Assembly: GCF_009649845.1 (NCBI RefSeq)
Contig: NZ_WJIE01000009.1
Coordinates: 1 to 32,684, forward strand
Length of the DNA: 32,684 nucleotides
From: Polyangium spumosum
Lineage (GTDB): Bacteria; Myxococcota_A; Polyangia; Polyangiales; Polyangiaceae
Direction of reading: 5' to 3'
In this document: piece by piece, positions 8,704 to 31,060 of the stretch
Numbering within the stretch: position 1 is the stretch's first letter
How the letters are laid out: the number at the start of each line of letters is the position of its first letter
The notes under the pieces: model-generated
Told to the model about the DNA's origin: nothing
Seen by the model: the letters and a program-made list of their open reading frames with translations, nothing else
Databases searched by the model: none
Translations under genes and position numbers: made by a program

Positions 8704-13044
<4,341 letters not shown>

Positions 13045-13144: not shown

Positions 13145-13251
13145 GTTCGGCCTGGTACGCGCCACTCCCTGCCGATCTGCCGGATGACTGCTGCTTCGGC
13201 GGGTCCAGGGATCCCCCATCCTTGCGGACATGTACTATCTCTGGTCTCGCG

Positions 13252-15432: not shown

Positions 15433-15595
15433 CCGCAGCGGACGTCTCTCGTCTATTTTCGTCTTCTCCGACCGCTGGACATTCCTGGAGCGACGACGGG
15501 CGTAGAATCGAGGGGCCACGCGCTTCCTCGGGGGACTCGCGTGGCGAAGCGTCCCTCGCTCGGCGCTGCCGGGCCCTTGCCTTGGAGAACACGCG

Positions 15596-16966: not shown

Positions 16967-17051
16967 TCGCCTGTCTTGCCGTTTCCTTCGGGTCGCCCTA
17001 GCCTCGGATCAGGCGTGGACCGTGTCATGCGGCCGCGACCCGGAGGAAAAC

Positions 17052-17984
17052 ATGTACGGTCCCAAAGGTCAGAGCAGCGGCGGCGGGCGTCCGGCTGCGG
17101 CTCCCAAGAAGATCACCGTGCCGGACATTCGCGCGCGCAAGGCGAACGGACCGCCGATCGCGATGGTGACGGCCTACGACTTCACGATGGCGCGGCTCTT
17201 CGACGAGGGCGGCGCGGACATGCTGCTCGTCGGCGACTCGCTCGGCATGGTCGTGCAGGGGCACCCGACGACGTTGCCCGTGACGGTCGAGGAGATCTGC
17301 TACCACGGCCGCGCGGTCGCGCGTGGAGCGCGGCGCGCGCACGTGGTGGGGGACATGCCGTTCATGAGCTTCCAGGTCTCGGCCGTGCAAGCGCTGGAGA
17401 ACGCGGGCCGCCTGATGAAGGACGGCGCGTTCGAAAGCGTGAAGATCGAGGGCGGCGAGGAGGTGGCCGAGCACGTGCGCCGCATCGTCGCGGCGGGCAT
17501 CCCCGTGATGGGGCACGTGGGTTTGACGCCGCAGTCGGTGCACGCGATGGGCGGCTTCAAGGTGCAGGGCAAGGGCGAGGACGCCGCGGCGCGCCTCCTT
17601 CGGGACGCGCAGGCGCTCGACGAGGCGGGGGCGTATGCGATCGTGCTCGAGGCGATCCCGCCGGACCTCGCCGAGGAGATCACGGCGGCCGTGTCTGTCC
17701 CGACGATCGGCATCGGCGCGGGCGCGGGTTGTGATGGGCAGGTGCTCGTCTGTTACGACATGCTCGGCATGTACCCGGAGCTGCGCCCGAAGTTCGCGAA
17801 GCGCTTCTCCGAGGTGGGCGAGCAGATCATGGCGGCGACACGTGCGTACGTGGACGAGGTGCAGGCGCGCACGTTCCCTGGCGCCGAGCACAGCTTCAAG
17901 CCGAACGGCCCGCGCCGCGCGCCGCCGTCGGCCGAGCCCGCCGTGGCGCTGGAGGAGATTCCTCCGCACTGGCAGACGCATTAG
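17052..17984 (+). CDS. panB: 3-methyl-2-oxobutanoate hydroxymethyltransferase (ketopantoate hydroxymethyltransferase)
   Basis: KITVPDIRARKANGPPIAMVTAYDFTMARLFDEGGADMLLVGDSLGMVVQGHPTTLPVTVEEICYH...GIPVMGHVGLTPQS... are PanB signatures. The track ORF begins at 17022, but the ATG at 17052 has GGAGG 5 nt upstream. A ~45-aa Pro-rich C-terminal tail follows. Confidence 0.9.
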   Translation: MYGPKGQSSGGGRPAAAPKKITVPDIRARKANGPPIAMVTAYDFTMARLFDEGGADMLLVGDSLGMVVQGHPTTLPVTVEEICYHGRAVARGARRAHVVGDMPFMSFQVSAVQALENAGRLMKDGAFESVKIEGGEEVAEHVRRIVAAGIPVMGHVGLTPQSVHAMGGFKVQGKGEDAAARLLRDAQALDEAGAYAIVLEAIPPDLAEEITAAVSVPTIGIGAGAGCDGQVLVCYDMLGMYPELRPKFAKRFSEVGEQIMAATRAYVDEVQARTFPGAEHSFKPNGPRRAPPSAEPAVALEEIPPHWQTH

Positions 17985-18083
17985 CCTCACCCCCCATCCC
18001 CCTCTCCACTCCGTGAAGAGGGGGAGAATAAGCGCCTCTTCCCCCCTCTCCACGGAGTGGAGAGGGGTTGGGGGTGAGGCTCA
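17982..18083. repeat. compound palindromic element: two inverted ~42-bp units of a small repeat family (stop-GCCTCACCCCCARCCCCTCTCC-loop-GGAGAGGGG)
   Basis: Unit a (17982-18024, forward) is tAGCCTCACCCCCCATCCCCCTCTCCactccgtGAAGAGGGGG. Unit b (18042-18083, reverse) is CCCCTCTCCacggagtGGAGAGGGGTTGGGGGTGAGGCTCAG. Together they form a ~31-bp-arm near-perfect inverted repeat (17985-18014 with 18050-18079, one mismatch) around a 35-nt spacer. The panB TAG stop sits in unit a and the Cys-rich gene TGA stop in unit b. Confidence 0.55.
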
Positions 18084-19112
18084 GTTGCAGTCGATCCCGC
18101 AGATCAGCCCGACCTCGCCGATGCAGATCCCGTCCCAGTTCTGCTCGCAGCAATAGGGATCGGCCTTGCACACGGCCTCCGCGCACGGGTTGCACGTCGG
18201 ATCCAGCGCGCCGCCGTTCTGGCAGATCGAGTGCGCGCAGTTGCAGCTCACGCCGCACTTCATGGTCGCCGCCGCCACGCACGCCTCGTCCCAGCCCGTC
18301 GTGCAGCATTCGGGCTGATCCATGCACACCGACGTGATGCACGGATCCGCGCCGCAGAGCGTGTCGGCGAGGTAGGAGCACGCTCCGCTCCACGGCGCGC
18401 TCGAGCCCATGCCGCAGCAGGCCGGGTCCTGCATACACACCTCGTCCACGCACGACCCGCGACAAACGTTCGGGTCGAGCGCCGCGCCCGTGCCGCAGAC
18501 GGAGTGCGGACACTCCGGGCACGGACCACAATCCTGCGCGCACGTCCCGCAGTCCTCGCCGCCGTTGCACGTGCCGTCGCCGCAGGCGCAGGCGCCGCAG
18601 TCGTTCGGGCACGAGTCACACGTCTCGCCGTTGCACTCGCCGTTGCCGCAGCAGCCGGCGCTGCAGAGCTCGTCGGCGAGCGCCACGCAACCCGCCCCCC
18701 AGAAGTTGTCGCAGCAGCCCTGGCCGTTCTGCGCGTTGCAGACCTGATCGACGCACGCATTACAGCCCAGCGTGAGCGCGTCGCCGACGCTGCAGACCGC
18801 GTGCTGGCAGGTGTCGCCGCCGCCCGACGAGGACGACGAGGCGGACGACGACGAGGACGAGGACGCGCTGGACGATGAGGACGAGGCCGCGCTCGAGCTC
18901 GACGCGCTCGACGAGGACGACGCCGTGCTCCCGGACGAGGACGACGCGCTCATGCCGCCCATGCCGGCCATGCCGCCCATGCCGCCGCTCCCCCACGTGC
19001 CGCCTTCGCCGCCGCCGCCCTGGTTGTTCGGCGTGCCGAAGAGGTCCCGGCCGTCGGCCGTGCACCCGGCCGCGGCGAGCGCGGCGATCGCGAAGAAGCT
19101 TGTGAATCGCAT
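18081..19112 (-). CDS. secreted modular Cys-rich lipoprotein (poly-Ser linker, myxo-type Cys-rich repeat, four copies of an uncharacterised ~45-aa Cys module)
   Basis: The track ORF is 18081..19133 (TTG). The preferred ATG gives MRFTSFFAIAALAAAGC, a signal peptide plus lipobox, with GGAGGA 8 nt upstream. A Gly/Ser-rich linker with ~45 consecutive Ser/Ala follows. Next is CCGNGECNGETCDSCPNDCGACACGDGTCNGGEDCGTCAQDCGPCPEC, which resembles the Myxococcales CGNG...CDDGN Cys repeat. Four modules then fit C-x-H-[AS]-[VI]-C..G-ALDP-x-C..C...VC..DP-x-CC...W[DS]..C (CQHAVC..., CPHSVC..., CITSVC..., CAHSIC...). There are 60+ Cys in total. Confidence 0.8.
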   Translation of the reverse strand: MRFTSFFAIAALAAAGCTADGRDLFGTPNNQGGGGEGGTWGSGGMGGMAGMGGMSASSSSGSTASSSSSASSSSAASSSSSSASSSSSSSASSSSSGGGDTCQHAVCSVGDALTLGCNACVDQVCNAQNGQGCCDNFWGAGCVALADELCSAGCCGNGECNGETCDSCPNDCGACACGDGTCNGGEDCGTCAQDCGPCPECPHSVCGTGAALDPNVCRGSCVDEVCMQDPACCGMGSSAPWSGACSYLADTLCGADPCITSVCMDQPECCTTGWDEACVAAATMKCGVSCNCAHSICQNGGALDPTCNPCAEAVCKADPYCCEQNWDGICIGEVGLICGIDCN

Positions 19113-19178
19113 GTCCCGACTCCTCCGAGGCAAGGAGCGCGATGCTACCGCGCCCGAGCCGCCTCGTGCGCATCTTCT

Positions 19179-19219
19179 CCCCTCTCCGCGTGCGGAGAGG
19201 GGCTGGGGGTGAGGCTCAG
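19179..19219. repeat. third copy of the same palindromic element family (reverse orientation)
   Basis: CCCCTCTCCgcgtgcGGAGAGGGGCTGGGGGTGAGGCTCAG. The CCCCTCTCC/GGAGAGGGG 9-bp stem and the GGGGGTGAGGCTCAG tail match unit b at 18042-18083. The TGA of the BatA-like gene (19216-19218) lies inside GGCTCAG. Confidence 0.55.
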
Positions 19220-21225
19220 GCTGCCGCCGAACCCTCGCGCTTTTGCCCCACCGCGCGCAGGAACAGCTCCAGCACGACCAGGCCGAGCAGCCCGAGCGCC
19301 ACGTAGGGCGACGCGTCGATCGACGGCACGACGCCCCCGAGCTCCTCCGCGCGCGCCGCGTCGACGACGCGCCGCGGCCGCAGATCGATCTCGCGCTCCG
19401 GCACCGTCGCGACCCGGATCACCCGCTCGCCGTCGAGCCGCACCTCGTACCGACCTCGCAGCGGCGCCACCGCGCGGCGGCGCCCGTCCTGCTCCACGAC
19501 CGGGATCGTCCGGCGCGCCTCGCCCGCGCCGACGGGCAGTCGCTCGACCGCCACGTCCTTGAACCCGTCGAACGTGAACGCGTCGCCGACCTCGATCTGC
19601 CGCGCTCCGCCCCGGGCCCGCGCCGTGCCCACGAAGCGATCGAGCAGCGCCAGGAAGGCCGGACGCAAAACGAAGTCGCTCTCCTCCACCGTGAGCGGCA
19701 GCGACAGCACGTAGACCGCCCCGCGGCCGAGCGAGCGGCGCAAGAGCAGCGGCGCCCCGTCGTCCCAGCGCGCGAGCACGTCCGCGTTCGTCAGGGCGGC
19801 CGGATCGAAGGACGCGCGTCCGTCGGGCGAGAGCTTGGCCAGGCCCTCCGCGCTTGGCCCGAAGAACACCGCGCTCGTGGGGTCCGCGCCTTGCGACGGG
19901 CTCGCCCCCCAGCGCACCACGCCCGGCACGAGCGGGTCGAACCCCGCGCCGAGCGGCGCCGTCGCGGCGCGTGGACCGAGCGTCAAGAGCAGCACGCCCC
20001 CGCGCTCCACCCACGCCGCGAGCGAGCGCCGCACCTCCGGCGTGAAGCCCGGCACGTCGTCCACGACGAGCCCCGCGAACGCCGACAGCTCCTCCGCGTG
20101 GTCCGGCACGGCCGGCAGCGGGCGCACCTCCGCGTCGAGGTGCATCGCCGCGAGGGCCTGCTCGATCGGCGGCGGCCCGCCCGTGGCCACGTGCGAGGAC
20201 GCCACGTCCACCACGACCGCGATCGGCAGCGCCCCGCCGGCCGCGACCACCGGCGCCTCGTCGTCCTCCAGGATCGTGTCGCCCGGCGTCAGCCCGACCG
20301 TGAGCTCCGCCGGCGCGCCCGCCGGCACGTCGAGCGAGATTTCTTCGGCGCGGACCGCCGCCCCGAGCGGCGCCGAGGCGAGCACCTTGCCCTCGCCGCG
20401 GAGCTCGATCGAGCGCCCGGCCGAGGCGGAAGCGGCGCCTGCGGCCTCGGGGCTACACACGACCCGCGCCCGCACCTTGCCCGCGCGCCCGTCCGCGCGT
20501 GTCACCGCGCAATCGCCGCCCGTGGCTTCGAGCTCCGGCACGGGCGCCCAGAGCGCCGCATCCGAGCCGCCGCCGAGGGGCGGCGCGCTCGGCGCCCCGT
20601 CCGCGAGGTCGCTCAAAAGCACCACCCGCCGATCGGCGTGGGGCACGCGGAGCAGGAGCTCCCGCGCCAGGGCCAGGGCGCCTTCCAGGTCGGTCGCGCG
20701 ATCGGACGGCTCGATCATGTCGAGCGCGCCCGTCACGGCCGTCATGTTCGTCGTCGCGGCGAGCGCCACGCGCGCGGGCGCGCCGCCGAGCACCACCGCG
20801 ACCGCGTCGCCGCTGCGTAGCCCCGTCGCGAGCTCGCGCGCCGACGCGAGGGCCCGGTCGAACTTCGTCCGCTTGCCCGGCCCGCCTGGCCCGCCCTCCA
20901 GCGGCGCGCGCATGCTGAGCGAGTCGTCGATCACGATCGCCAGCGCCACCGACGCCCCGTCCTTCCGGGCCAGGCCGAGCCGCGCGCAGCGCACGAACGG
21001 CGTCGCGCCGAGCACGGCCAGCAGGAGCACGCTGAGCGCTCGCACCGCGAAGAGCGAGCGATCCTCGAGCATGCTGCGCCGCCGGGCCATGGGCTTCGTC
21101 GGCGGGACGAGTTTTGCCGGCGGGAACGGCTGCTCCTCGGCCTGCCTTCGCCGCAGCATGTGGGCCGCGATCGGCGCGGCGACGAGCAGCGCCACGAGCA
21201 GCCCGGCGATCGTGGTGAAGCTCAT
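19216..21225 (-). CDS. BatA-like membrane von Willebrand factor A (VWA) domain protein
   Basis: The track ORF runs to 21747, but its Arg/Gly N-terminal 170 aa are GC artefact. The ATG at 21223-21225 overlaps the DUF58 stop (ATGA). It gives MSFTTIAGLLVALLVAAPIAAHMLRRRQ...LLLAVLGATPFV, a BatA-type N-terminal two-helix anchor. The VWA domain has the MIDAS motif ALAIVIDDSLSM. A C-terminal hydrophobic helix VALGLLGLVVLELFL is present. ~670 aa. Confidence 0.8.
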   Translation of the reverse strand: MSFTTIAGLLVALLVAAPIAAHMLRRRQAEEQPFPPAKLVPPTKPMARRRSMLEDRSLFAVRALSVLLLAVLGATPFVRCARLGLARKDGASVALAIVIDDSLSMRAPLEGGPGGPGKRTKFDRALASARELATGLRSGDAVAVVLGGAPARVALAATTNMTAVTGALDMIEPSDRATDLEGALALARELLLRVPHADRRVVLLSDLADGAPSAPPLGGGSDAALWAPVPELEATGGDCAVTRADGRAGKVRARVVCSPEAAGAASASAGRSIELRGEGKVLASAPLGAAVRAEEISLDVPAGAPAELTVGLTPGDTILEDDEAPVVAAGGALPIAVVVDVASSHVATGGPPPIEQALAAMHLDAEVRPLPAVPDHAEELSAFAGLVVDDVPGFTPEVRRSLAAWVERGGVLLLTLGPRAATAPLGAGFDPLVPGVVRWGASPSQGADPTSAVFFGPSAEGLAKLSPDGRASFDPAALTNADVLARWDDGAPLLLRRSLGRGAVYVLSLPLTVEESDFVLRPAFLALLDRFVGTARARGGARQIEVGDAFTFDGFKDVAVERLPVGAGEARRTIPVVEQDGRRRAVAPLRGRYEVRLDGERVIRVATVPEREIDLRPRRVVDAARAEELGGVVPSIDASPYVALGLLGLVVLELFLRAVGQKREGSAAA

Positions 21226-22157
21226 GCCCGCGCCTCGGCCACGGCGCGCACCACGTCGCGCACCACGTCGGCGGGGGGCCTGTCCGTCGTCGCCTCCACC
21301 CAGCGCCCGCCTCGGCCCGAGAGCTCCCTCGACCAGCGCTCGGCGATCGCGGCGAGCCGCTCGCGGTAGATCGCGCGCACCTCCTCGGCGTCCGTCTCGA
21401 CGACCACGTCGCCCTCGCTCGCGCGTAGCCGCACGTGCCCGGAGAAGCCGAGATCCGCCTCGTTCGGGTCGAGCACCCGCACCGCCACGAGCGAGCGCCC
21501 GCCGGCCGCGAGCGCCGAAAACGCCGAGAGCGCCCGCTCGGGCAGGTCCACGAAATCGCTCACCAGCACGATCACCGCGCCGCGCCGGGCGCGCCGCGCC
21601 ACCGGGGCGAGGGCGCGCTCCATCGCGGCCTCGTCTGCGCTCGCGTCGCCTGCGGCTGCGGCCCCTTCGAGCGCGCCGGCCACCCTGTCGAACGCCTCGC
21701 GCCCGCTCGACGCCGGCAGCGCGAGCGTCCCTCGCCCGCCGATCCACGCGAGCCCCACGGGATCGCCGCTCGACAGCGCCACGCGCGCGAGCGCCGCGGC
21801 CACGAGCGCCCCGTACGCGAGCTTCGCCCCGGGGGCCCGCGTGCTCCGGTAGGCCATCGACGCGGTCGCGTCCACGCAGAGCCAGAGCGCGCGATCCGTC
21901 TCCGTCTCGAACTCGCGGATCATCATCCGGTCGTGCCGGAGCAGCGCGCGGCGGTCGAAGAACCGCAGATCGTCGCCGGGCACGTAGGGCCTGTGCCCGC
22001 CGAACTCCACGCCGGGCCCTTTTCGAACGCTCCGGTGCCCTCCGGCGTACACGCCTTCGGCCAGGGACCGGGCGCGGAGGCGCAGCGGCGCGAGGCTGCC
22101 CCAGTCGATGGGGATCCCGTCCTTTCCGGACCGCGACGAGGGGCGAGGCTCGGCCAT
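21222..22157 (-). CDS. DUF58 family protein (MoxR-associated VWA-like partner)
   Basis: GHRSVRKGPGVEFGGHRPYVPGDDLRFFDRRALLRHDRMMIREFETETDRALWLCVDATASMAY is the DUF58 signature. The preferred start is ATG at 22155-22157 (MAEPRPSS...). It is translationally coupled to the downstream BatA-like gene. Confidence 0.85.
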   Translation of the reverse strand: MAEPRPSSRSGKDGIPIDWGSLAPLRLRARSLAEGVYAGGHRSVRKGPGVEFGGHRPYVPGDDLRFFDRRALLRHDRMMIREFETETDRALWLCVDATASMAYRSTRAPGAKLAYGALVAAALARVALSSGDPVGLAWIGGRGTLALPASSGREAFDRVAGALEGAAAAGDASADEAAMERALAPVARRARRGAVIVLVSDFVDLPERALSAFSALAAGGRSLVAVRVLDPNEADLGFSGHVRLRASEGDVVVETDAEEVRAIYRERLAAIAERWSRELSGRGGRWVEATTDRPPADVVRDVVRAVAEARA

Positions 22158-22224
22158 GGGGGATCGTTCAATTACCCCAACGCGGAGGGCCCGCCACGAC
22201 AAAACTTGTGGCAAGAGTGGGCCT

Positions 22225-22620
22225 GTGCGCGACAAGTTCGGCGGCTCTTTCCGCGGGGTCCTGCTCGCGACGCTCCTCGTATCGTGCGAGACCGCCGAAC
22301 CCGAGCCGGCGCCCGCGCCGCCCTTCGCGCCCTCCGCGTCGGCGGCGCCCGCGGCGCCCGTGCTGCCGCGGCGCCCGACGGTCCGCCATTACCTCGCGCG
22401 CAAGGACGAGCGTTGCGAGGTCTACGCGGTCGACGGTGATCGTGTCTCCGCGGCCACGCGGACCCCGTGCCCGCAGGATCTCCAGGTCGGCGAGCGAATC
22501 CGCGTGATGGGGAAATCGTGTATGCGGGAGGGCATCGCCGAGCGGGCGCAGCCGGTCGTCTGCCCCGGAGCGCTCCTGACGGCGGCGACGCCCCCGGATG
22601 TGGATGCCGGGGGGACCTGA
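22225..22620 (+). CDS. small secreted lipoprotein with 5 Cys (hypothetical)
   Basis: An in-frame GTG inside track ORF 22108..22620 gives MRDKFGGSFRGVLLATLLVSC, a signal peptide with LVSC lipobox. GC3 is very high. The mature part is Cys-containing: CEVYAVDGD...TPCPQD...GKSCMREG...VVCPG. It is divergent from DUF58. Start is uncertain; the alternative ATG at 22156 gives an implausibly long n-region. Confidence 0.55.
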   Translation: MRDKFGGSFRGVLLATLLVSCETAEPEPAPAPPFAPSASAAPAAPVLPRRPTVRHYLARKDERCEVYAVDGDRVSAATRTPCPQDLQVGERIRVMGKSCMREGIAERAQPVVCPGALLTAATPPDVDAGGT

Positions 22621-22640
22621 GCCTCGGGGGACCTTTGATG

Positions 22641-22718
22641 AAAGGTCTCGAGGGGGTCGATCAAAGGTCTCGAGGGGGTCGATCAAAGGTCTCGAGGGGG
22701 TCGATCAAAGGTCTCGAC
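22641..22718. repeat. 22-bp direct tandem repeat, ~3.5 copies (AAAGGTCTCGAGGGGGTCGATC)
   Basis: Read directly: three perfect 22-nt units at 22641-22662, 22663-22684 and 22685-22706, plus a partial unit AAAGGTCTCGAC that merges into the 21-bp array. The period is not a multiple of 3. Confidence 0.9.
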
Positions 22719-23009
22719 CCGGTCGCGGACCTGCTCGACCCGGTCGCGGACCTGCTCGACCCGGTCGGCGACCTGCTCGACCCGGTCGCGAACCTGCTCG
22801 ACCCGGTCGGTGACCTCCTCGACCCGGTCGCGAACCTGCTCGACCCGGTCGCGGACCTCCTCGACCCGGTCGCGGACCTGCTCGACCCGGTCGCGGACCT
22901 GCTCGACCCGGTCGCGGACCTCCTCGACCCGGTCGCGGACCTGCTCGACCCGGTCGCGGACCTGCTCGACCCGGTCGCGGACCTCCTCGACCCGGTCGCC
23001 GACCGCCTG
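22716..23009. repeat. 21-bp direct tandem repeat, 14 copies (GACCCGGTCGCGGACCTGCTC), in phase with codons
   Basis: Read directly: 14 contiguous units with few variant positions (gcg to ggc/gcc, gac to aac/gtg, ctg to ctc, last unit GACCCGGTCGCCGACCGCCTG). All six frames are open across it: DPVADLL, TRSRTCS and PGRGPAR on the + strand. Positions 2, 8, 14, 17 and 20 of the unit are the only A/T. Confidence 0.9.
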
Positions 23010-24009
23010 GACGGGGGCCTGTTCGGCGTGGGAGAGAACGCGTACCCTGGAGCTCTTGGCAACCCGGATCGAAGGGCGGATCGGAGACCATTACCAGCTC
23101 TCGGCCGTGCTCGGCCGGGGGGCCATGGGCACGGTGTACGCGGCGAAGGACCTGCGCACGGGCAAACGCGTGGCCCTCAAGGCCCTGCACGTCCGCGGGT
23201 TCCTCGACCCGCGCGACCCGGACGTCCTGCGCTTCGAGCAGGAGGCGCGTATCGCAGGATCGCTCGCGTCCGAGCACATCGCCCAGGTCTTCGACATCGA
23301 GCGAGACCCCGAGACCGAGGCGCCGTTCCTCGTGATGGAGCTGCTCCGCGGCGAGGACCTGCAATCGCTGCTCGACCGCGTGGGGCCCCTCTCGGTCGAC
23401 GTGGCCTTGCGGATCGCGGCGCAGGCCGCGCGGGGGCTCGCGGCGGCGCACGCGGCCGGGGTCGTGCATCGGGACGTCAAGCCCGGCAACCTCTACCTGG
23501 CGCGGCAACATGGCGGCGAGATCGTGGTCAAGGTCCTCGATTTTGGCATCGCCAAGATACGGCGCCTCCCGGTCGACCTGTCCGCGGGCGCCGGGCTCAC
23601 GGCGCCGCAGGCGTCGATGACGGCGACGGGGCAGCTCCTCGGCTCGCCGCTCTACATGTCGCCGGAGCAGGTGGACGGCGCGAAGGGCCTCGACGCGCGC
23701 AGCGACGTGTTCTCGCTGGCCGTGACGCTCTACGCGATGCTCGCCGGCCGGCCGCCGCACGCGGACGTGAAATCGTTCCCGATGCTGCTCACGCGTATCT
23801 CGACGACGCCCATGCCCCGCATTCGCGCGGCGGCGCCGTGGGTCTCGCCCGAGGTCGAGGCGCTGCTCGACCACGCGGCGCAGCTCGACCGCGAGGCGCG
23901 ATTCCCGAACGCGGCGGGGTTGCTCGACGCGATCGAGCCTCTCCTCCCGGCAGGCGCGGCATTACGCGAGGAGCTGCTCGTCGGCTGCGGGGGGAATTCC
24001 GGACCGTGA
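22810..24009 (+). CDS. Hanks-type Ser/Thr protein kinase (soluble); 5' end embedded in the 21-bp repeat array
   Basis: The kinase domain is unambiguous: HYQLSAVLGRGAMGTVYAAKDLRTGKRVALKAL...HRDVKPGNLYL...DFGIAK...SPLYMSPEQ. The track start, GTG 22810, lies inside the repeats and gives an N-terminus of (TRSRT[CS]S)x9. The alternative TTG at 23056 gives MATRIEGRIGDHYQL, a typical kinase N-terminus, but with a poorly spaced GGAG. There is no ATG/GTG/TTG in this frame between the upstream TGA (22636) and 22810. Confidence 0.8.
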   Translation: MTSSTRSRTCSTRSRTSSTRSRTCSTRSRTCSTRSRTSSTRSRTCSTRSRTCSTRSRTSSTRSPTAWTGACSAWERTRTLELLATRIEGRIGDHYQLSAVLGRGAMGTVYAAKDLRTGKRVALKALHVRGFLDPRDPDVLRFEQEARIAGSLASEHIAQVFDIERDPETEAPFLVMELLRGEDLQSLLDRVGPLSVDVALRIAAQAARGLAAAHAAGVVHRDVKPGNLYLARQHGGEIVVKVLDFGIAKIRRLPVDLSAGAGLTAPQASMTATGQLLGSPLYMSPEQVDGAKGLDARSDVFSLAVTLYAMLAGRPPHADVKSFPMLLTRISTTPMPRIRAAAPWVSPEVEALLDHAAQLDREARFPNAAGLLDAIEPLLPAGAALREELLVGCGGNSGP

Positions 24010-24025: not shown

Positions 24026-25744
24026 ATGAACCAGCGGCAGATCCTGGCTTTTGTCGAGAAGCTCCGGCAGGCGCGGACCTTCGAGGACGCCGCGCAGGCC
24101 ATGCTGCGCGGGATGCTGGACGCGGCGAACGAGGCGCTCGGGGCGAGCGGGTTCGCGAACCGAGGCCGCATCCTCCGCGGCATGGCGCATCTGCGGCCCG
24201 GCGACGGCTACCGGCGATTGGTGCTCGTCGACGACGCCCACCGGAGCGGCGAGCCCGTGATCCACCATCTGCCCTCCGCGAGCGCGTGGCGGTGGATCGT
24301 CACGCGGGGGCGCCCCATTGCGCTCGACGTCCCGCTCGGCCGCGTGTGGACGCTGGAGGACGATGCGCCGAAGGTGCTCCAGGAGGGCGGGTTCTCCGGC
24401 CAGGACAGCGTGCTGCGATTGACGAACCGCGACACGAGCCACCTCTATGCGGTCCCCCTGCGGGCCTTCCACGGCGCGATCGAGGGGATGGCGACGGTCG
24501 AGGCGGCCTGCCCGCGGGCCGTGGGCGACGATTTCATCTTCCCGGCCCTCCACGAATCGCTCGAGGTCCTCGCCGACCTCGCGGCGCCTTATCTCGCGAC
24601 CTTGCCCTTGCGGCCTGTGACGGGTGGCGCCACGGACGAGCTCTTGCCGGTCATTGGCCAGACCATGGCGGGCTTGATCGAAATGCTCCGGGTCTTCGCG
24701 CAGCAGGAGGAGACCTTGCTCATCGGCGGTCCGACGGGGGCGGGCAAATCGCGGCTGGCGCGGTGGTGCCATGCGCAATCGGTCCGGCGGGGGGCGCCGT
24801 TCGAGGTGCTCGACCTCATCGCCGTGCCCGAGGAGCTCCAGATGGCGGAGCTCTTCGGCTGGAAAAAGGGCGCCTTCACGGGCGCGGTGCGCGACACGCC
24901 GGGCTGCATCACGCGGGCGTTCAAGGGGACCTTGTTCATCGACGAGATCGACAAGCTCTCGCTGAAGGCGCAGGCGGGCTTGCTCCAGCTCCTCGAATCG
25001 CGGACGTATCGCCCGATCGGGGACGGGGCGCGGGAGCAGCAGGCGAACGTGCGCTTCATCGTGGGCAGCAACGTCGACCTGTACGATCAGGTGAAGGCGG
25101 GCCGTTTCCGGGAGGATCTTTATTATCGGATCAACGTGCTGCCCTTGAAGATCCCCCCGCTCGACGAGCGGCGGGACGAGGTGGCGGAGTGGGCGCGATT
25201 CATGGCGGTGCGGCGTCATCGTGAATCGGTGCCGGGCGGAGAGGTGCGAATCCTGGCGGGGGCGGAGCGGCTGCTGGCGGAGCACACGTGGCCGGGGAAT
25301 TTGCGGCAGCTCGACAACGTGGTGCGGCGGGCCTACGCGCTCGCGTTGATGACGCATGGCCAGGCGGGGGCGGAGGTCGTGCTGGAGGAGAAACATTTCG
25401 CGCGGGCCTTGAGCTACGAGCGCGGGAGCGAGCGGCGGTCGGCGCTGGAGGCGCTACGCGGCGCGGCGGAGGCGCTGGTGGAGGAGGCGGAGCGGCTGGA
25501 GGCGAAGGGGCAGGGGCTCGAGCTGGAGGTATGCGACGCGTTCCGCGGGATCGTGCTGGGGACGGCGGTGGAGAAGCTCGGCAGCCGGGACGCGGCGTTC
25601 CGGCTGTTCGGGAAGGGCGCGCAGGTGCAGGCGCGCAATCACCACAAGATGTTGCGGCGCGAATGGGAGAAGGTGGAGGCGCTCTGCAAGGCGCTCGGGG
25701 AGGAGGGAGCGCCGTTCAAGGGGATGGGGGAGGAGGAGGGGTGA
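24026..25744 (+). CDS. sigma-54-dependent transcriptional activator (GAF-like N-domain, AAA+ sigma-54 interaction domain, degenerate C-terminal HTH)
   Basis: Walker A is LLIGGPTGAGKSRLAR. The GAFTGA motif is WKKGAFTGA. Walker B/ESR is TLFIDEIDKLS...RFIVGSNVDL...EDLYYRINVL. The ATG is 14 nt after the kinase stop and follows GAGGA, fitting an operon with the Ser/Thr kinase. Confidence 0.9.
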   Translation: MNQRQILAFVEKLRQARTFEDAAQAMLRGMLDAANEALGASGFANRGRILRGMAHLRPGDGYRRLVLVDDAHRSGEPVIHHLPSASAWRWIVTRGRPIALDVPLGRVWTLEDDAPKVLQEGGFSGQDSVLRLTNRDTSHLYAVPLRAFHGAIEGMATVEAACPRAVGDDFIFPALHESLEVLADLAAPYLATLPLRPVTGGATDELLPVIGQTMAGLIEMLRVFAQQEETLLIGGPTGAGKSRLARWCHAQSVRRGAPFEVLDLIAVPEELQMAELFGWKKGAFTGAVRDTPGCITRAFKGTLFIDEIDKLSLKAQAGLLQLLESRTYRPIGDGAREQQANVRFIVGSNVDLYDQVKAGRFREDLYYRINVLPLKIPPLDERRDEVAEWARFMAVRRHRESVPGGEVRILAGAERLLAEHTWPGNLRQLDNVVRRAYALALMTHGQAGAEVVLEEKHFARALSYERGSERRSALEALRGAAEALVEEAERLEAKGQGLELEVCDAFRGIVLGTAVEKLGSRDAAFRLFGKGAQVQARNHHKMLRREWEKVEALCKALGEEGAPFKGMGEEEG

Positions 25745-25751: not shown

Positions 25752-26582
25752 TCACTGCAGTATGTAGCAGCTCGCGTCCTCGGTCTTGAGGCGTACCCGG
25801 ATCGTCTCGGTGTAGCCATAGCTGTCGAAGTAGTCCCAGAGGCCGCCCTCCAAGGAACCTCCCCCGGAACCGCACACACCGAGGTTCGTCAGGTTGCACG
25901 TCGAGCTCGTGTCGCAGATGCGGGTTGACATGGCCTGGGCAGGATCGCCGCACGCGTTCGCGAGGTCGTCCTCCCAGCACACGTACGCCTCCGAGTTCGC
26001 TGGGCCCAGGAACAGATTGCCGAACGCGGTCGACTCGCGGAGATTGTACGTCCCCTGCAAGGTGCTGTCGGGCTCGATGGCGGCGTGCGCCCCCTCGAGC
26101 AGGATGGGCACGGGCTCCTCGAAGGCATTCAGCTTTTGAATCATGCAGGCGGAGACCCACCGTTGCTCCGAGAGCGTAAGCGGAGCGCCAAGCCATCCAT
26201 CGGCGAGCCCCCACCAACCCCTGTACGTCTCCCCGGTGATCGGGTCACGCACCGCCTGGTCCTCGCGTAGCGCGCACTTCACGGCCGATCTGAAATACTG
26301 GTGAGAGTAGACCGGCGGCTTGGTGAGGAACGATATCATCGTTCCACCTCCTGCATCGAGCGCCTGAGAGCCGATGGCGTATAGCGCCGTCAGCGTTTGG
26401 GGCCACCACAAGGGCACCGAGTCGTCGCCATTCTGCCCGGTCGGCGGCGGATCGGGGTCGCCCATCGTCTGGAACGGGACGTCGAACATGTCCTCGTCGA
26501 GCGCGTGTTCGGGGCCGCTGCAGCCGGTCGCCAAGGTGCATGCGCCAGCGAGCATCAAGGATGAAAGTCGAACGTTGATCAT
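25752..26582 (-). CDS. lipoprotein, paralog A of a tandem pair (unknown family)
   Basis: The track ORF runs to 27278. The internal ATG at 26580-26582 gives MINVRLSSLMLAGACTLATGC, a signal peptide with LATGC lipobox. It continues SGPEHALDEDMFDVPFQTMGDPDPPPTGQNGDD...YRGWWGLADGW...LLEGAH and ends in a Cys-rich C-terminal third. Its stop is 7 nt from the convergent activator stop. Confidence 0.8.
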   Translation of the reverse strand: MINVRLSSLMLAGACTLATGCSGPEHALDEDMFDVPFQTMGDPDPPPTGQNGDDSVPLWWPQTLTALYAIGSQALDAGGGTMISFLTKPPVYSHQYFRSAVKCALREDQAVRDPITGETYRGWWGLADGWLGAPLTLSEQRWVSACMIQKLNAFEEPVPILLEGAHAAIEPDSTLQGTYNLRESTAFGNLFLGPANSEAYVCWEDDLANACGDPAQAMSTRICDTSSTCNLTNLGVCGSGGGSLEGGLWDYFDSYGYTETIRVRLKTEDASCYILQ

Positions 26583-26674
26583 GAGTACCTTTCCATTCAA
26601 TGGCAGCCCCTTGCAGGGCGCCGCTAGCGGCTCGGATTCGGTGGACGAGGCTCGTCGTGGACCACGAAGTGGGG

Positions 26675-27580
26675 TCACTCCGGGAGGTCGCAGTCGAGCC
26701 CGTACATGTCGAGGTTGGGCAGGCGCTCGCGGAAATTGAGATAGGTGCCGCCGCAGCTCCAGTAGTTTCCGCCGTTCCACCAAGTGCACGCGGTCTCGCA
26801 CGGCCCTACCACGTGGACGCCACACGAGGTGCCTGCGGTGCCGCAGAGCTTGTCGTCGAGCACGGCCTCCGCATCGTTGCAGTCGTACATCAGGTCGTCG
26901 AAGTAACACGCGCTGGCCGTGAACGCGGGGCGGGAAAAGCGCGGGGTATAATCTTCGGGCTCGAGGGGCGCGATCGAATCGAACAGATTGCCCCAGACGA
27001 TCGAGTCGTACTTGGGGTATCCAGACGGGACCGTGTTGATGTAGAAGCCCGGGCGATACCCCTCCAGCAAGAGGTTCGTGGTGGTCTTGTAACCATTGAG
27101 GTGCTGGACGAGGCAGGAGGTCATCCAGTATCTGTTGTCGGAGCCGAGGGCCTGGGTCTGCCATTGCGAGGCGACGCCGTACCAGCCGGAGTACGTCAGG
27201 TTCGTGGCAGGATCCGTGACGGTCACGTTCTGCGGCAGGGCGCACTTGATCAGGAACTTGAGGGCGTGTTCCCTGCACGAATCGGACCCGAGCTGCGGCA
27301 GGTGCGGCATGCTGGGGAGCTGCCCCTGCGCATTGACGAGCGGGCCATCAGCGAGATCGCGGTACGTCTGCTGGACGCCGTGGTGCCAGAAGCAGTTGGG
27401 GAAGAAGGGATTTTGCCCGGTGGGGGGCGGATCGGGATCCGGATCGCCGCCGGTCATCGGCTCGAGCGGCACGTCGAACGCGTCCACTCCGACCGTGCCT
27501 CCGGCACCGATGTCTCCGCACCCCGTCGCCAGCATACAAGCACTGACCAGGATCATGCACGAGGATCGAACGTCATTCAT
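26675..27580 (-). CDS. lipoprotein, paralog B of a tandem pair (unknown family)
   Basis: MNDVRSSCMILVSACMLATGC has the same LATGC lipobox. Collinear motifs are shared with paralog A: GDPDPDPPPTGQNPF, YSGWYGVASQW, LLLEGY and a C-terminal Cys cluster (CYFDDLMYDCND...CGTAGTSCGVHVVGPCETACTWW). The track first codon is GTG at 27590-27592, and the ATG is 4 codons later. Confidence 0.8.
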   Translation of the reverse strand: MNDVRSSCMILVSACMLATGCGDIGAGGTVGVDAFDVPLEPMTGGDPDPDPPPTGQNPFFPNCFWHHGVQQTYRDLADGPLVNAQGQLPSMPHLPQLGSDSCREHALKFLIKCALPQNVTVTDPATNLTYSGWYGVASQWQTQALGSDNRYWMTSCLVQHLNGYKTTTNLLLEGYRPGFYINTVPSGYPKYDSIVWGNLFDSIAPLEPEDYTPRFSRPAFTASACYFDDLMYDCNDAEAVLDDKLCGTAGTSCGVHVVGPCETACTWWNGGNYWSCGGTYLNFRERLPNLDMYGLDCDLPE

Positions 27581-27618: not shown

Positions 27619-27636
27619 TGCACCGCTCGTGCCAAC
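27619..27636 (-). promoter_or_regulatory. candidate sigma-54 (-24/-12) promoter upstream of lipoprotein paralog B
   Basis: The minus strand reads TTGGCACGAGCGGTGCA. TGGCACG is a 7/7 match to the -24 element. GG to GC spacing is exactly 10 nt. The -12 element is GTGC versus the TTGC consensus. The predicted start is ~25-30 nt upstream of the ATG at 27580. A sigma-54 activator is encoded 2 kb away. Confidence 0.35.
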
Positions 27637-27761
27637 TCCACGTGAGCCGTGACGACGGGCGTCATCGTAGGGACCGGAGGCCTCGGTACGGCAGGTGAAG
27701 CCCACCCGCCACCACGTCTCGGATACGTTGGTGTTACAGGGTGCGGTATCAGGTGTCCGTG

Positions 27762-27781
27762 GGGTACGCGAGCGCGTACCC
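27762..27781. promoter_or_regulatory. perfect palindrome GGGTACGC-gagc-GCGTACCC ~130 bp upstream of the sigma-54 candidate (possible enhancer/UAS, or 3' hairpin of the upstream kinase gene)
   Basis: Read directly: 8-bp arms with a 4-nt spacer. It lies in the intergenic region between the receptor kinase stop (27799) and paralog B. The distance to the -24 element fits activator enhancer geometry. It lacks a U-tract, so it is not a canonical terminator. Confidence 0.25.
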
Positions 27782-27798
27782 AGGGGACGCGGCGGGTC

Positions 27799-30700
27799 TC
27801 AGAGCAACGCAAGCGCCTCCATGAGAGCCTGGCCATGTTGGCGCTCGAGGCTGTGATCCTCGCGGAAGGCGGACTCCAGGGCCTCCCTCGCGCGACGGGC
27901 GGCGTCGGAGACCGCGGCCCCACGGCCTGCCGCGCGAGCCTGTACCAGGTAGAGTAGACCCTTCGCCAGGAGCGCCGTGGCCATGTGTGGATTTATCGAG
28001 AGCGCCTTGTCCGCCATGAGGAGCCCGGCGGCGACGTCCTCGCGCGAACTTCTGGCGGTCTGCTGGGCCCACGACGCCCGCCAGGCATGGATCTCGGCCG
28101 CGATTTGGTATGGGTTCGGATCCCTGGCATCGGAGAGCAACGGGCGTATCGTCGCGAGGGCGGCATCAAAGGCGTCGGCGTCCACGTCCCTCCGTTGCAC
28201 GGCGACGCGTATGGCGATCAGGTCGATCTCCGCGGTCATTCCGCGCAGGTCGGGGGTCAGGCCCCCGCGAAGCTTCGCCGCCTCCGATGTAGCTTGCCGT
28301 GCGGTCGAGACGGAGGCGTCCGGGGCGAGACCTTCCTGGATCTCGTACAAGGCACGCAGATAATAACAGCAGGCCACTTCGGCGAGCAGGTACGGATCTC
28401 TGGGCTGGTCACCGGCGAAGCGACGCACCCTATCGAGAGCTGATTGTATCGATGGGCGTGGATCTCGGCCGAGGGAGAGCTCGCGAAGTCCTTGGAGTCG
28501 CTCCACGCGTGCCCTCCAGTAGGCTTTACGAAATGGGTCGATGTTTTCCCGCTGCTCGAGTGACGTGAGTGCCGCCGCCAGCGCCGCGACTGGAGCCATC
28601 TCGGCTCGACCTCGTTGGATCTCGTGACGCACCAGCAGGGCGAGCGCCTGGACTCTCAGATGGATGGGTGGCGCGAAGGCCGGATCCAGCGCGATCGCGC
28701 GGTCGAAATGTCGGAGGGCCTCGTTCACGACATCCTGCACATCCTCGCCGCGCGAGGTGGCCCGGCCTGCAGCCGCAAGATATACCTGCCCCAGCTCGTT
28801 GACCGCCCAGGTGAAGCTCGGGTCGAGCTCGATGGCTCGACGATACGCAGAGATGACGGGCTCGACCGATAGATCCTCGCCCCGCGAGGAGAGGATCTGC
28901 GTGTGGTTGTTGATCGAGCGCGCCATCGCATAATGCGCCATCACGTCCCCCGGGCTCATGCGCACGCTCTCCTCCGCCGCGCGCACCGCCTCCTCCGCGA
29001 CCCGCCGTGCTTCCTCCCCGGTATCGCCGCGGAATGCATACGATCGCGCCGACATCACGAGCGCCCGCTGCACCCGCGCCCTTCCATCCTTCGAGCTCGC
29101 CTGCACCGCGCGCATGCAAGCTTCATCCGCCGTATCGAGCGCCGCCTTCATCGACGCCCCCTTCTCCCCCGCTGCCCACCCCATCTTCTCCCAAAGCTCA
29201 CACTCCGCCCGATGCAGGTCCGGATCACTCTCCCCCATCCGCGCCGCCACCGCGTACGCCTCCGCCGCCGGATCGAAATACCGCTTCATCTTCTCCCAAT
29301 CGAACGCCGCGTCGTGCCGATACTTGCTCCCCTCCGCGAACAACGCATCCGCCTCCAGTTGCTTCGCCTCGTACATCCACGGCGCCTGCTCGAACGCCTC
29401 CTTCCCCAGCGCCCGCGCCTCCTCGTTCCTCCCCTCGTACAGCGCGATCAGCCCCTCCACGTACGCCGGCGCCTCGATCTCCGCCCCCGACGCCGCCCGC
29501 AGATGCCCGAGCGCAGGATCCCGCAACGCCGCCGCGAGCTCCGCCTCCCGCTTCTTTCGCTCCTCCGCGTTCGTGATCCGCTTCGTCTCGTCGAGCGCCC
29601 TTCGATACAGCTCCCCCAGCGTCCGACCGAGCGCATATTCGAGCTCCGGCGACCGATACCCCGCCGCCACCGCCGCCTCCAGGTGCTCCCGCGCCTTCTC
29701 CGGATCCCCCAGCGCCAGATACCCCCGCCCGAGCGCGTAATGCCCCGGCCCCTCGCCGACCCGCCCCGCCTCCTTCATTCGTTGCTCGATCCCCGCGAGC
29801 TTCCGCCGCACCACGTCCCGCTCCCGCTCCACGTCGTGCAAGGGCAATGCGTAGGCCGCGCGCAGGAAGAGCTCCATCTCCTTCACCCGCTCCCCGAGCT
29901 CCTGCGCGAGCCTCGCCTCCGCCGCCGCCTGCTGCCGCGCCTCGAACCACACACCCGAGAGCGCGAGCGCGGCGACGAGCGACGCCCCCCCGAGCGCCGT
30001 CGCGAGCTTGTGCTTCCGCGCCTTCTTCAGGAGCACGTATCCCCAGGACGCACGCCGCGCCGCGATGGGCTCCCCGTCCAGAAATCGCTGCAGATCCTCC
30101 GCGAGCGCCCGCGCCGATTCGTATCGACGCCCGGGATCACGCTCCAGGCATTTCATCACGATCGTCTCGAGGTCCGCCGGCACCCCCTTCTTCACCGTCC
30201 CGAGCGGCGGCGGATCCTCGAACGCCACCATCATCAAGAGCTTCCACGCGTGTGGCGCGACGAACGGTGGCCGCTCCGCGAGGACGTCGTACAAGGTCGC
30301 CCCGAGCGAATACACGTCCGAACGTCGATCCAGCGCGTGCACCTCGCCCTTCGCTTGCTCCGGCGACATGAACGCCGGCGTCCCCAGCACCGCCCCCGTC
30401 ACCGTCTCCCCCTTGTCCGCGACCTCCCGCGCCAGACCAAAATCCATCACGTACGGCTTGATTCCCCCGTCCGCGTCGGCCTCGACCATGATGTTCCCGG
30501 GCTTCAGATCCCGATGAATCAGCCCGAGCCGGTGCGCCTCGTGCACCGCCGCCGCGACCTCGCGCATCACCTTCACGCGTTGCTCGAGCGAGAGCCGCCC
30601 GGCCATCCTCGAGAGCGGCTCGCCCTCGATGTATTGCATCGCGATGAACGGCTCGCCGTCGGCCTCCCCGGCCTCGTAAATGCGGCAGACGTGCTCGTGC

Positions 30701-31011
30701 TGGATCTTCGCCTGCGCGCGCGCCTCCAGCAGGAAACGCCGCCAGAGCTCCGGATCGCTGCCCTTCAAGAGCTTGAGCGCCACCACGCGCCCGAGCCGCT
30801 TGTCCCGGCCGCGGTAGACCGCCCCCATCCCGCCTTCGCCGAGGAAATGGATGTCCTCGTACCGCTCCGCGAGGGACGGAGGCACGAAGCGACGCTCGGA
30901 CCGCGGCACCGAACGAGGGCCTGATTCCGTCGACGCGAGACCCGGCGCCGCGAGCACCGTGGTGTTCTCCACGTCGACGTTCTCCTCGGGCGACGCTCGA
31001 ACGATCCTCAT
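27799..31011 (-). CDS. receptor-type Ser/Thr protein kinase: N-terminal Hanks kinase, single TM, ~700-aa C-terminal helical (TPR-like) repeat domain
   Basis: The track ORF 27799..32070 is over-extended. The internal ATG at 31009-31011 has GGGGGAGG 5 nt upstream and gives MRIVRASPEEN...YEDIHFLGEGGMGAVYRGRDKRLGRVVALKLL...HRDLKPGNIMV...DFGLAR...GTPAFMSPEQ. A TM helix (KLATALGGASLVAALALSGVWF) follows, then a long alpha-helical repeat region (e.g. ALGRGYLALGDPEKAREHLEAAVAAGY). The sequence beyond 31011 overlaps a real + strand gene. Confidence 0.9.
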   Translation of the reverse strand: MRIVRASPEENVDVENTTVLAAPGLASTESGPRSVPRSERRFVPPSLAERYEDIHFLGEGGMGAVYRGRDKRLGRVVALKLLKGSDPELWRRFLLEARAQAKIQHEHVCRIYEAGEADGEPFIAMQYIEGEPLSRMAGRLSLEQRVKVMREVAAAVHEAHRLGLIHRDLKPGNIMVEADADGGIKPYVMDFGLAREVADKGETVTGAVLGTPAFMSPEQAKGEVHALDRRSDVYSLGATLYDVLAERPPFVAPHAWKLLMMVAFEDPPPLGTVKKGVPADLETIVMKCLERDPGRRYESARALAEDLQRFLDGEPIAARRASWGYVLLKKARKHKLATALGGASLVAALALSGVWFEARQQAAAEARLAQELGERVKEMELFLRAAYALPLHDVERERDVVRRKLAGIEQRMKEAGRVGEGPGHYALGRGYLALGDPEKAREHLEAAVAAGYRSPELEYALGRTLGELYRRALDETKRITNAEERKKREAELAAALRDPALGHLRAASGAEIEAPAYVEGLIALYEGRNEEARALGKEAFEQAPWMYEAKQLEADALFAEGSKYRHDAAFDWEKMKRYFDPAAEAYAVAARMGESDPDLHRAECELWEKMGWAAGEKGASMKAALDTADEACMRAVQASSKDGRARVQRALVMSARSYAFRGDTGEEARRVAEEAVRAAEESVRMSPGDVMAHYAMARSINNHTQILSSRGEDLSVEPVISAYRRAIELDPSFTWAVNELGQVYLAAAGRATSRGEDVQDVVNEALRHFDRAIALDPAFAPPIHLRVQALALLVRHEIQRGRAEMAPVAALAAALTSLEQRENIDPFRKAYWRARVERLQGLRELSLGRDPRPSIQSALDRVRRFAGDQPRDPYLLAEVACCYYLRALYEIQEGLAPDASVSTARQATSEAAKLRGGLTPDLRGMTAEIDLIAIRVAVQRRDVDADAFDAALATIRPLLSDARDPNPYQIAAEIHAWRASWAQQTARSSREDVAAGLLMADKALSINPHMATALLAKGLLYLVQARAAGRGAAVSDAARRAREALESAFREDHSLERQHGQALMEALALL

Positions 31012-31044: not shown

Positions 31045-31060
31045 GGCAAACACCATACCA
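31045..31060 (-). promoter_or_regulatory. weaker sigma-54-like -24/-12 match upstream of the receptor kinase gene
   Basis: The minus strand reads TGGTATGGTGTTTGCC. GG to GC spacing is 10 nt. The -12 element is TTTGC, a perfect TTGC core. The -24 element is TGGTAT versus TGGCAC. The predicted start is ~24 nt upstream of the ATG at 31011. Confidence 0.22.

Follow-up and report, generated by a model that had tools for sequence, protein, structure and literature searches.

Lipoproteins that are encoded directly behind a receptor kinase may be partners of that kinase, outputs of a circuit to which it belongs, or simply its neighbours. Here we ask which of these applies to two lipoproteins of the myxobacterium Polyangium spumosum, LP1 and LP2, which are encoded in a stretch of 32,684 nucleotides (RefSeq assembly GCF_009649845.1, contig NZ_WJIE01000009.1, positions 1 to 32,684; hereafter the window). 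An earlier note, made from the sequence alone, had described them at positions 25752-27580 as a tandem, co-oriented pair of paralogues of no recognisable family, and had suggested that they form a unit of receptor and cognate lipoprotein with the membrane kinase encoded upstream. The results point to a larger unit, which comprises two Ser/Thr kinases, a sigma-54-dependent activator and the lipoproteins, and we find it fairly probable that the lipoproteins are the regulated envelope output of this cassette and not merely a ligand of the receptor kinase.

The lipoprotein pair and its family

LP1 is encoded at 26675..27580 on the minus strand (ATG start, GGAGG 5 nt upstream) and comprises 301 amino acids, including a signal peptide of 20 residues; LP2 follows at 25752..26582 on the same strand (ATG start, 276 amino acids). 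The spacers measure 218 bp between the gene of the big kinase and LP1 and 92 bp between LP1 and LP2. Both proteins have the sequence characters of bacterial lipoproteins, with a basic n-region, a hydrophobic core and a lipobox of the form [LVI][ASTVI][GAS]C (MNDVRSSCMILVSACMLATG before the Cys in LP1, MINVRLSSLMLAGACTLATG before the Cys in LP2), and in both Cys21 is the predicted lipidated residue. In LP1 it is followed by an acidic, Pro-rich tether of about 30 residues and a disulfide-rich globular domain of about 250 amino acids. The mature proteins contain 13 (LP1) and 9 (LP2) Cys residues, the lipidated one included, and LP2 thus has 8 non-lipid Cys; six disulfides are predicted in LP1 and four in LP2. 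A conserved linear motif, xFDVP[LF]ExM, lies inside the flexible, disordered tether.

The position and the shared orientation given in the earlier note matched the two genes exactly. The claimed paralogy was borne out by an identity of 31% across 262 amino acids (BLASTP, E 9e-35), which on sequence grounds makes LP1 and LP2 true paralogues, and the shared features that had been listed are all present, namely the lipobox LATGC, the Asp-Pro segment behind the Cys (DPDPDPPPTGQN in LP1, DPDPPPTGQN in LP2), the Trp motif (GWYGVASQW in LP1, GWWGLADGW in LP2) and the C-terminal Cys cluster (8 residues in LP1, 6 in LP2). The public NCBI protein of LP2 (P0001, 245 amino acids, Polyangium spumosum) hides its lipoprotein nature because the start was placed at Met32, and it lacks the signal peptide and lipobox (window 26490-26582); the longer N-terminus is covered in the homologue alignment.

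In Myxococcus xanthus, a Lys at position +2 is a mark of inner-membrane lipoproteins, and an Ala at +7 is linked to sorting to the matrix (PMC3222651). Since the +2 residue is Gly in LP1 and Ser in LP2, and Lys in neither, the outer membrane is probably their location, as a default guess by analogy with M. xanthus.

Homologues were collected with LP1 by an exhaustive phmmer search against 1.84 billion cluster representatives, which returned 354 representatives at E <= 1e-3, 82 of them at E <= 1e-10. The profile from the resulting family (alignment A2) scored 270 bits with LP1 and 272 bits with LP2. Nearly all members have a length of 250-320 amino acids, a signal peptide with a lipobox Cys, and 9-15 Cys residues, and in almost all of the 155 family sequences inspected, the signal peptide closes with a small residue before the Cys. 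The family motifs, which are present in LP1 and LP2, are CAL, G-x-x-G-L-A-x-x-W, W/V-S/T-A-C, LN, GNLF, R-x-C-D and G-x-C; in distant members, pentapeptide repeats of the SNALS, SNGLS or NRLS type take the place of the tether. Named members belong to Polyangium mundeleinium, P. fumosum, Polyangium sp., Minicystis and Sorangium, and all are annotated as 'hypothetical'. As judged from these sequences, the family is restricted to the Polyangiaceae, and LP1 and LP2 are anciently diverged copies. Two composite products were noted among the homologues: P0103 (960 amino acids), in which a domain of the lipoprotein family is fused to an RCC1-like propeller, and P0051 (225 amino acids, metagenomic), which combines part of a kinase domain with the C-terminal two thirds of a lipoprotein of the family and may be a genuine fusion or a chimeric gene call.

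The claim that the pair belongs to no recognisable family also held. LP1 and LP2 had no match above the curated thresholds of Pfam or NCBIfam and no similarity to a toxin, inhibitor or enzyme family or fold in the Pfam, NCBIfam and PDB libraries; a match to YPEH2ZP (E 0.007) was dismissed, as it is below threshold and sits on the Cys-rich tail. A comparison of 103 family members with Pfam gave no shared family (one member matched GLTT repeats in its tether), and the single match of the family profile to PDB sequences, at E 5.6, is noise. The AlphaFold2 (AF2) models of LP1 (predicted local distance difference test, pLDDT, 84.1; predicted template modelling score, pTM, 0.83) and LP2 (pLDDT 86.3, pTM 0.86) have the same order of helices and strands, with the first 25-30 mature residues disordered; according to these models, the family fold is without counterpart among solved structures. 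The invariant columns of the 103 members are occupied by Cys, Trp, Gly, Ala, Asn, Phe and Arg. Because these columns hold no catalytic-looking set, the lipoproteins most likely act by binding or in a structural role, and not by catalysis.

Linkage to a cassette of kinases and a sigma-54 activator

The gene upstream of LP1 (27799..31011, minus strand; ATG with GGGGGAGG upstream) encodes the big Ser/Thr kinase, which the earlier note had read as a membrane kinase with a large extracytoplasmic repeat domain. The protein has 1070 amino acids and consists of a Pkinase domain (residues 50-303, Pfam), a KKARKHK cluster, a conserved uncharged segment of 21 residues and about 710 amino acids with matches to tetratricopeptide repeats (TPR); the uncharged segment is kept, flanked by KKARKHK, in six orthologues. 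From hydropathy and the positive-inside rule only, it is predicted to have a single transmembrane segment and a periplasmic TPR ectodomain (residues about 360-1070). It has no NTPase module. Convergent with the big kinase and lipoprotein genes are those of a small cytoplasmic Ser/Thr kinase (23056..24009, plus strand; Pkinase 1.1e-37, Pfam) and of a sigma-54 enhancer-binding protein, hereafter the activator (24026..25744, plus strand; Sigma54_activat 3.9e-48, Pfam), which ends 7 bp from LP2. The small kinase has a probable TTG start, which is uncertain; its N-terminus was placed near LATRIEG by alignment with the orthologues of the comparison loci L001 and L003, and its gene lies immediately upstream of that of the activator, with 14-17 nt between them.

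The activator is composed of an N-terminal domain of 210 amino acids, an AAA+ domain and a C-terminal region of 130 amino acids, and its relatives in the PDB are FlrC, NifA, NtrC1 and PspF. With GAFTGA in the translation and a full AAA+ domain, it looks functional as far as sequence can tell. Its N- and C-terminal parts gave no Pfam match even at E 10, and the same applies to HTH_8 in residues 441-573, a region that is 66-72% conserved in the orthologues; a homologue search with the N-terminal domain gave three matches only, which is too few for a model.

The cassette, in which the big kinase and lipoprotein gene(s) converge with the small kinase and activator genes, is complete in the window and in L001/L002, L003-L005, L006/L007 and L099, and partial in L008. 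The lipoprotein gene lies on the same strand as the kinase with transmembrane segment and TPR ectodomain, and directly downstream of it, in all seven loci with a cassette of the window type, and the genes outside the cassette differ between loci. Orthologues of the big kinase were found upstream of the lipoprotein in L001, L003, L006, L008 and L099, and activator orthologues in L001, L003 and L006 (AAA+ domain 83-86%) and L099. The identity to the window is 78-86% for the kinase domain of the big kinase, 60-68% for its ectodomain, 65-72% for the small kinase and 44-56% for the best-matching lipoprotein, which is the fastest-evolving member of the cassette. The lipoprotein slot holds one gene of the LP2 type in L001 and L003, two of the LP1 type in L006, one of the LP1 type before the contig end in L008, and one of each in the window. 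Because type and copy number differ in this way, the sequences present the tandem pair as one state of a variable slot, with a split between LP1 and LP2 that is apparently older than these lineages.

The lipoproteins of the window (25752-27580), L003, L006 and L008 are mosaic. Within a lineage, their first 50-60 residues agree at 57-82% of positions, also when a protein of the LP1 type is compared with one of the LP2 type, and the globular parts of the two types share only 24-30% identity; the globular parts group by type and the leader groups by lineage. Such a pattern points to gene conversion at the 5' end, or to a swapping of domains behind a leader specific to each lineage. The genes of the big kinase, LP1 and LP2 have a G + C content at third codon positions (GC3) of 0.83-0.85, compared with 0.92 in those of the small kinase and activator and 0.94-0.95 in rpoB and rpoC, and total G + C drops to 0.64 across the lipoprotein genes.

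Linkage to kinases extends well beyond the window clade. A genome scan seeded with the narrow alignment A1, the sample of which is biased to closer relatives, yielded 26 further non-redundant loci from Sorangium, Chondromyces, a Polyangium metagenome-assembled genome (MAG) and an uncultured Polyangiaceae MAG. In 24 of these 26 loci, a big kinase gene is immediately followed by the lipoprotein gene, and a second kinase gene lies upstream in divergent orientation; in the remaining two (L015 and L021), kinase and activator adjoin the lipoprotein in another order. An activator was present within the fetched 10 kb in 16 of the 26 loci, and an FHA phosphothreonine-reader domain in all seven of the tested activators from cassettes of the Sorangium type. 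Distant members, at 20-26% identity, were kinase-linked in five of six cases, with the orders lipoprotein, kinase, FHA activator (L011), kinase, TPR protein, lipoprotein (L013), STAND kinase, lipoprotein, further kinase (L041 and the P0168 locus) and activator, STAND kinase, lipoprotein, kinase (L042); L009/L010 are the only distant loci without a kinase near the lipoprotein. The linkage persists at 22-30% lipoprotein identity and across rearranged orders, with the activator before or after and the small kinase divergent or downstream. In Sorangium (L016-L040), the cassette can recur as two or three paralogues within one genome, each with a small kinase, a STAND kinase and the lipoprotein, and some with an FHA activator in addition; So ce1335 (L021, L027, L039) and So ce513 (L024, L031) are examples.

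A functional tie between the lipoproteins and the cassette of kinases and activator is, in our view, very probable. The opposite case, in which the linkage is an inherited gene order without functional coupling and the lipoproteins are ordinary envelope proteins in a kinase-rich genome, could appeal to the great richness of Polyangiaceae genomes in Ser/Thr kinases, as in the Sorangium kinome, and to the origin of all examined loci from one bacterial family. It appears very improbable, however, in view of the survival of the linkage at low lipoprotein identity and in rearranged gene orders, the different flanking genes, and the essential confinement of the regulatory dyads described below to these lipoprotein promoters.

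The type of the partner kinase is not constant across the family. In 24 of 24 Sorangium and Chondromyces loci, the big kinase is of the STAND type, with an intact Walker A motif and no membrane segment, and the same type was found in three distant loci (L041, L042 and the P0168 locus). Its architecture is Pkinase + AAA_16 + TPR (the example of Sorangium cellulosum So ce56 scores AAA_16 + MalT-type TPR), and the small kinases of the Sorangium and Chondromyces loci are also soluble, cytoplasmic proteins. Transmembrane-like segments seen by hydropathy in the big kinases of Sorangium were rejected, as they contain Asp and precede a Walker A/B NTPase. By these sequences, a kinase with a TPR ectodomain is a trait of the window clade and not a rule of the family. 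The unit proposed in the earlier note therefore survives in part: its kinase linkage is conserved in other genomes, but the conserved unit has four genes, with a second kinase and a sigma-54 activator, and co-occurrence with a TPR-ectodomain kinase holds in the seven loci of the window type and not in the loci with a STAND kinase.

Most partner kinases are cytoplasmic and cannot have an exported lipoprotein as their direct ligand, so that a pair of receptor and ligand is not the logic of the family as a whole. We accordingly regard it as doubtful that the main role of LP1 and LP2 is that of a cognate ligand or co-receptor in the periplasm, which would bind the TPR ectodomain of the neighbouring kinase and act upstream of it as in LpqB-MtrB or NlpE-CpxA. 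Such a role would fit the invariable position directly downstream of the membrane kinase (7/7 loci of the window type), the conserved motif borne by the tether and the lower GC3 that the big kinase shares with LP1 and LP2 relative to the small kinase and activator; in addition, signal peptide and tether follow lineage and not lipoprotein type, as expected if they co-evolve with a lineage-specific partner. Besides the cytoplasmic STAND partner and the cytoplasmic small kinases, it is opposed by the conservation of the ectodomain while the lipoprotein slot shifts in type and copy number, and by a promoter of the activator type that belongs to the lipoprotein gene itself.

The fast evolution of the lipoproteins (44-56% identity, against 78-86% in the kinase domain and 83-86% in the AAA+ domain of the activator) and their variation in copy number and type between loci might also reflect an arms race. 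LP1 and LP2 would then be secreted or surface effectors, such as binding proteins of predation or competition, inhibitors or toxins, which the cassette merely regulates. The fusion of one family member to an RCC1-like propeller, an RCC1 lipoprotein gene that shares the regulatory signal (see below) and the Ala of LP2 at +7, the matrix-sorting position in M. xanthus (PMC3222651), are in line with this. We nevertheless think effectors improbable: the 103 members share no conserved set of catalytic residues, no similarity to a toxin, inhibitor or enzyme was found in Pfam, NCBIfam or the PDB, no immunity-like gene is adjacent in the window or the inspected loci, and the +7 rule concerns a single residue and was taken from a different suborder.

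Several further observations concern the small kinase and the setting of the cassette. The small kinases of L001 (14371-15651) and L003 (10770-12353) carry, behind the kinase domain, a linker of low complexity and a C-terminal tail anchor that is strongly hydrophobic; that of the window stops right after the kinase domain (23940-24009) and has neither. Just upstream of its probable TTG start (23056), two abutting tandem arrays occupy positions 22637-23004 (22 bp x 3.7 copies with 98% matches, and 21 bp x 13.9 copies with 92%). Several reading frames run through them uninterrupted (STRSRT[CS] or LLDPVAD heptads), but since the orthologues of L001 and L003 have no matching N-terminal extension, they are probably non-coding and part of the promoter region of the small-kinase/activator operon. 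The cassette is set in the core chromosome (window 4516-22235), with rpoB and rpoC at 4516-13044, a MshEN/HD/receiver/DUF4388 protein at 13132-15432, and further neighbours that include DUF2330, panB and a BatA-VWA + DUF58 pair on the minus strand (19216-22235).

The predicted LP1 promoter and a proposed circuit

LP1 is preceded by a predicted -24/-12 promoter of the sigma-54 type (27619..27634, minus strand; TGGCACGAGCGGTGCA), the last base of which lies 38 nt from the ATG. The element fits the consensus TGGCAC-N5-TTGCW at 10 of 11 positions and is the sole match to TGGCAC-N6-TGCW in the window, where 0.06 would be expected. A matching element occupies the same position before the lipoprotein genes of L001, L003, L006 (both copies), L008, L099 and L107, and of the six matches at 10/11 positions in 1.36 Mb of strand (fetched loci and window), five are these lipoprotein promoters.

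Further upstream lie two tandem dyads of 17 bp, GCGT-N9-ACGC, which form a candidate upstream activating sequence (UAS; 27753..27790, minus strand). The copy at 27774..27790 is exact, that at 27753..27769 has one mismatch, and the two are 21 bp apart. Such pairs, with a spacing of 21-22 bp, were found upstream of all six lipoprotein promoters of the window clade (9 of 12 sites exact, against a background of 0.05 per kb). The distance to the -24 element is 100-135 bp in every case, in line with the roughly 80-150 bp at which activator sites lie upstream of sigma-54 promoters. Both signals, the -24/-12 element and the dyad pair, keep their position, and the sequence between them is not conserved. 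Elsewhere in the fetched loci, dyad pairs are almost absent, save upstream of a second lipoprotein gene in L001/L002. This gene (L001 11079-12460; also in L002) encodes an RCC1-repeat beta-propeller with the lipobox MHTQRLVLALLLSSTALAGC. It separates the lipoprotein gene from that of the activator, as an insertion, and is preceded by three dyads of this kind and by a sigma-54-like element, TGGTAT-N5-GTGCT.

A metagenome scan with the dyads and TGGCA gave 80 loci, 68 of which have no cassette gene and are probably chance matches; four were informative. Two of these are further cassettes (L099 and L107). In the other two, L077 (2436-4167) and L121 (944-4974), activator orthologues (446 and 603 bits to the activator of the window, respectively) stand beside the dyad and promoter signature, which precedes lipoprotein genes outside the LP family, one cut by the locus end and the other encoding a Cys-rich protein of 361 amino acids; comparison of the L121 lipoprotein with the family profile (hhalign) gave no relation.

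The 92-bp spacer before LP2 contains neither a sigma-54 element nor dyads, and a scan for sigma-70 promoters and terminators around the pair gave nothing upstream of LP1 or LP2. Since the spacer has no promoter element and no terminator was seen, LP2 is probably transcribed by read-through from LP1. A weaker sigma-54-like element precedes the big kinase gene (31045..31060, minus strand; TGGTATGGTGTTTGCC, 33 nt upstream of the ATG, 8/11 positions). It is found at the same place with 9/11 positions in L003, L006 and L008, against a background of 0.042 per kb of strand for at least 9/11, and has no dyads; judging from these matches, the big kinase may itself be sigma-54-dependent.

In the Sorangium subgroups with an adjacent activator, most loci keep an element CGGnnCGnGATTTGC about 66 nt upstream of the lipoprotein ATG. 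This GG-N10-GC element with TTGC occurs mostly where the activator is a neighbour, and most loci that lack an activator also lack the element. The exceptions are L027 and L040, where the element is present although no activator was detected, and L022, L025 and L034, in which the activator lies at the locus edge and the element is absent.

That LP1 has its own conserved promoter of the sigma-54 type, with dyads, is one reason why we read the lipoproteins as regulated output. The activity of the adjacent activator would be set by two inputs, the small cytoplasmic kinase and, by way of its periplasmic TPR domain, the membrane kinase. The activator would bind the two dyads, about 120-155 bp upstream of the -24/-12 element, and remodel sigma-54 RNA polymerase at TGGCAC-N6-TGCA, leading to transcription of LP1 and, by read-through, of LP2. 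Both proteins would be exported by Sec, lipidated at Cys21 and probably moved to the outer membrane, where the globular domain would hang on its flexible tether of about 30 residues and most likely engage in binding. A feedback contact with the TPR ectodomain of the big kinase is plausible in the window clade.

A number of points weigh against this reading, to which we incline with reserve. The compared loci share descent and all come from one bacterial family, so that their counts overstate independence. The -12 box of LP1 is GTGC and not TTGC, and about half of the lipoprotein genes of the Sorangium type have no convincing sigma-54 element. Dyads taken singly are no commoner in the window than chance predicts, and the case for a UAS therefore rests on conservation across related loci. 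The activator of the window has neither an FHA domain nor a detectable HTH_8, which leaves its input and DNA binding without an assigned domain; because of the missing FHA domain and the N-terminal 210 amino acids that match nothing, the link from kinase to activator is especially tentative in the window clade. The claim of a new fold depends on predicted models and on a comparison that covered PDB libraries only. Finally, a role as output only does not account for a lipoprotein gene that sits so closely behind that of the big kinase.

A bolder version of the regulated-output reading, which we put forward as speculation, would close the loop: Ser/Thr kinases would act on the sigma-54 activator and promoter, these would yield a tethered outer-membrane lipoprotein of new fold, and the TPR ectodomain would read the lipoprotein back, with the STAND cassettes doing so by an unseen route. 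If true, this would constitute a four-component envelope surveillance system based on Hanks kinases, peculiar to the Polyangiaceae and present in two or three copies per Sorangium genome.

Relation to known systems

Myxobacteria of the Sorangium/Polyangium group have hundreds of Ser/Thr kinases and dozens of sigma-54 activators, with almost no known targets. The cassette offers a compact, repeated and testable wiring of kinases, activator, promoter with candidate binding sites, and output protein, and could serve as a model for the input of Hanks kinases to sigma-54 transcription. The signature of dyads and promoter can be used to find the remaining regulon, and has already picked up other lipoprotein genes. 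With several hundred sequence clusters, confident predicted structures and no relative in the PDB, the lipoprotein family is also a target for structural genomics. No description of the family or the cassette was found in the literature on the organism or on the themes of myxobacterial kinases, sigma-54 and FHA activators. The parts are known in kind; the protein family, the predicted fold and the recurrent cassette of kinase, activator and lipoprotein are without earlier description in searchable sources.

The nearest parallels in Myxococcus xanthus are the pathways from Ser/Thr kinases to FHA-domain sigma-54 activators that Jelsbak, Givskov and Kaiser are said to have described in 2005. There, too, Hanks kinases are genetically paired with sigma-54 activators, and the Sorangium-type activators agree in having FHA domains (7/7 tested), unlike the activator of the window clade. 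We know of no description of a dedicated, conserved lipoprotein family as the adjacent target of such a pathway. The big kinase upstream of most family members has the architecture of PknK-type STAND Ser/Thr kinases (Pkinase + AAA_16 + MalT-like TPR), whereas that of the window has no NTPase module and carries a membrane segment before the TPR region.

Lipoproteins and sensor kinases also form the 'three-component' systems LpqB-MtrAB of actinobacteria and CseA-CseBC of Streptomyces, in which, as here, the lipoprotein gene lies co-oriented beside those of a membrane sensor and a transcription regulator, and the lipoprotein is considered a modulator of the sensor that acts on the outer side of the membrane. 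In the present case, however, Hanks-type Ser/Thr kinases take the place of histidine kinases as sensors, a sigma-54 AAA+ activator stands in for the response regulator, LP1 and LP2 have no match to LpqB or any other family (a comparison made by Pfam only), LP1 has its own promoter of the activator type, and most family members have a cytoplasmic partner kinase. In PspF-pspA and CpxRA-cpxP, an envelope effector is encoded beside its regulator, is induced by it and feeds back. The likeness to PspF-pspA lies in an activator gene that adjoins a sigma-54-type target encoding an envelope protein, with feedback on the sensor conceivable; LP1 and LP2 differ from PspA and CpxP in having no sequence or fold relation to them and in an input from Ser/Thr kinases, and the window activator, with its N-terminal domain of 210 amino acids, differs from PspF, which has none. 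By sequence, fold or type of partner, the pair belongs to neither the LpqB/CseA nor the PspF/Cpx type of system.

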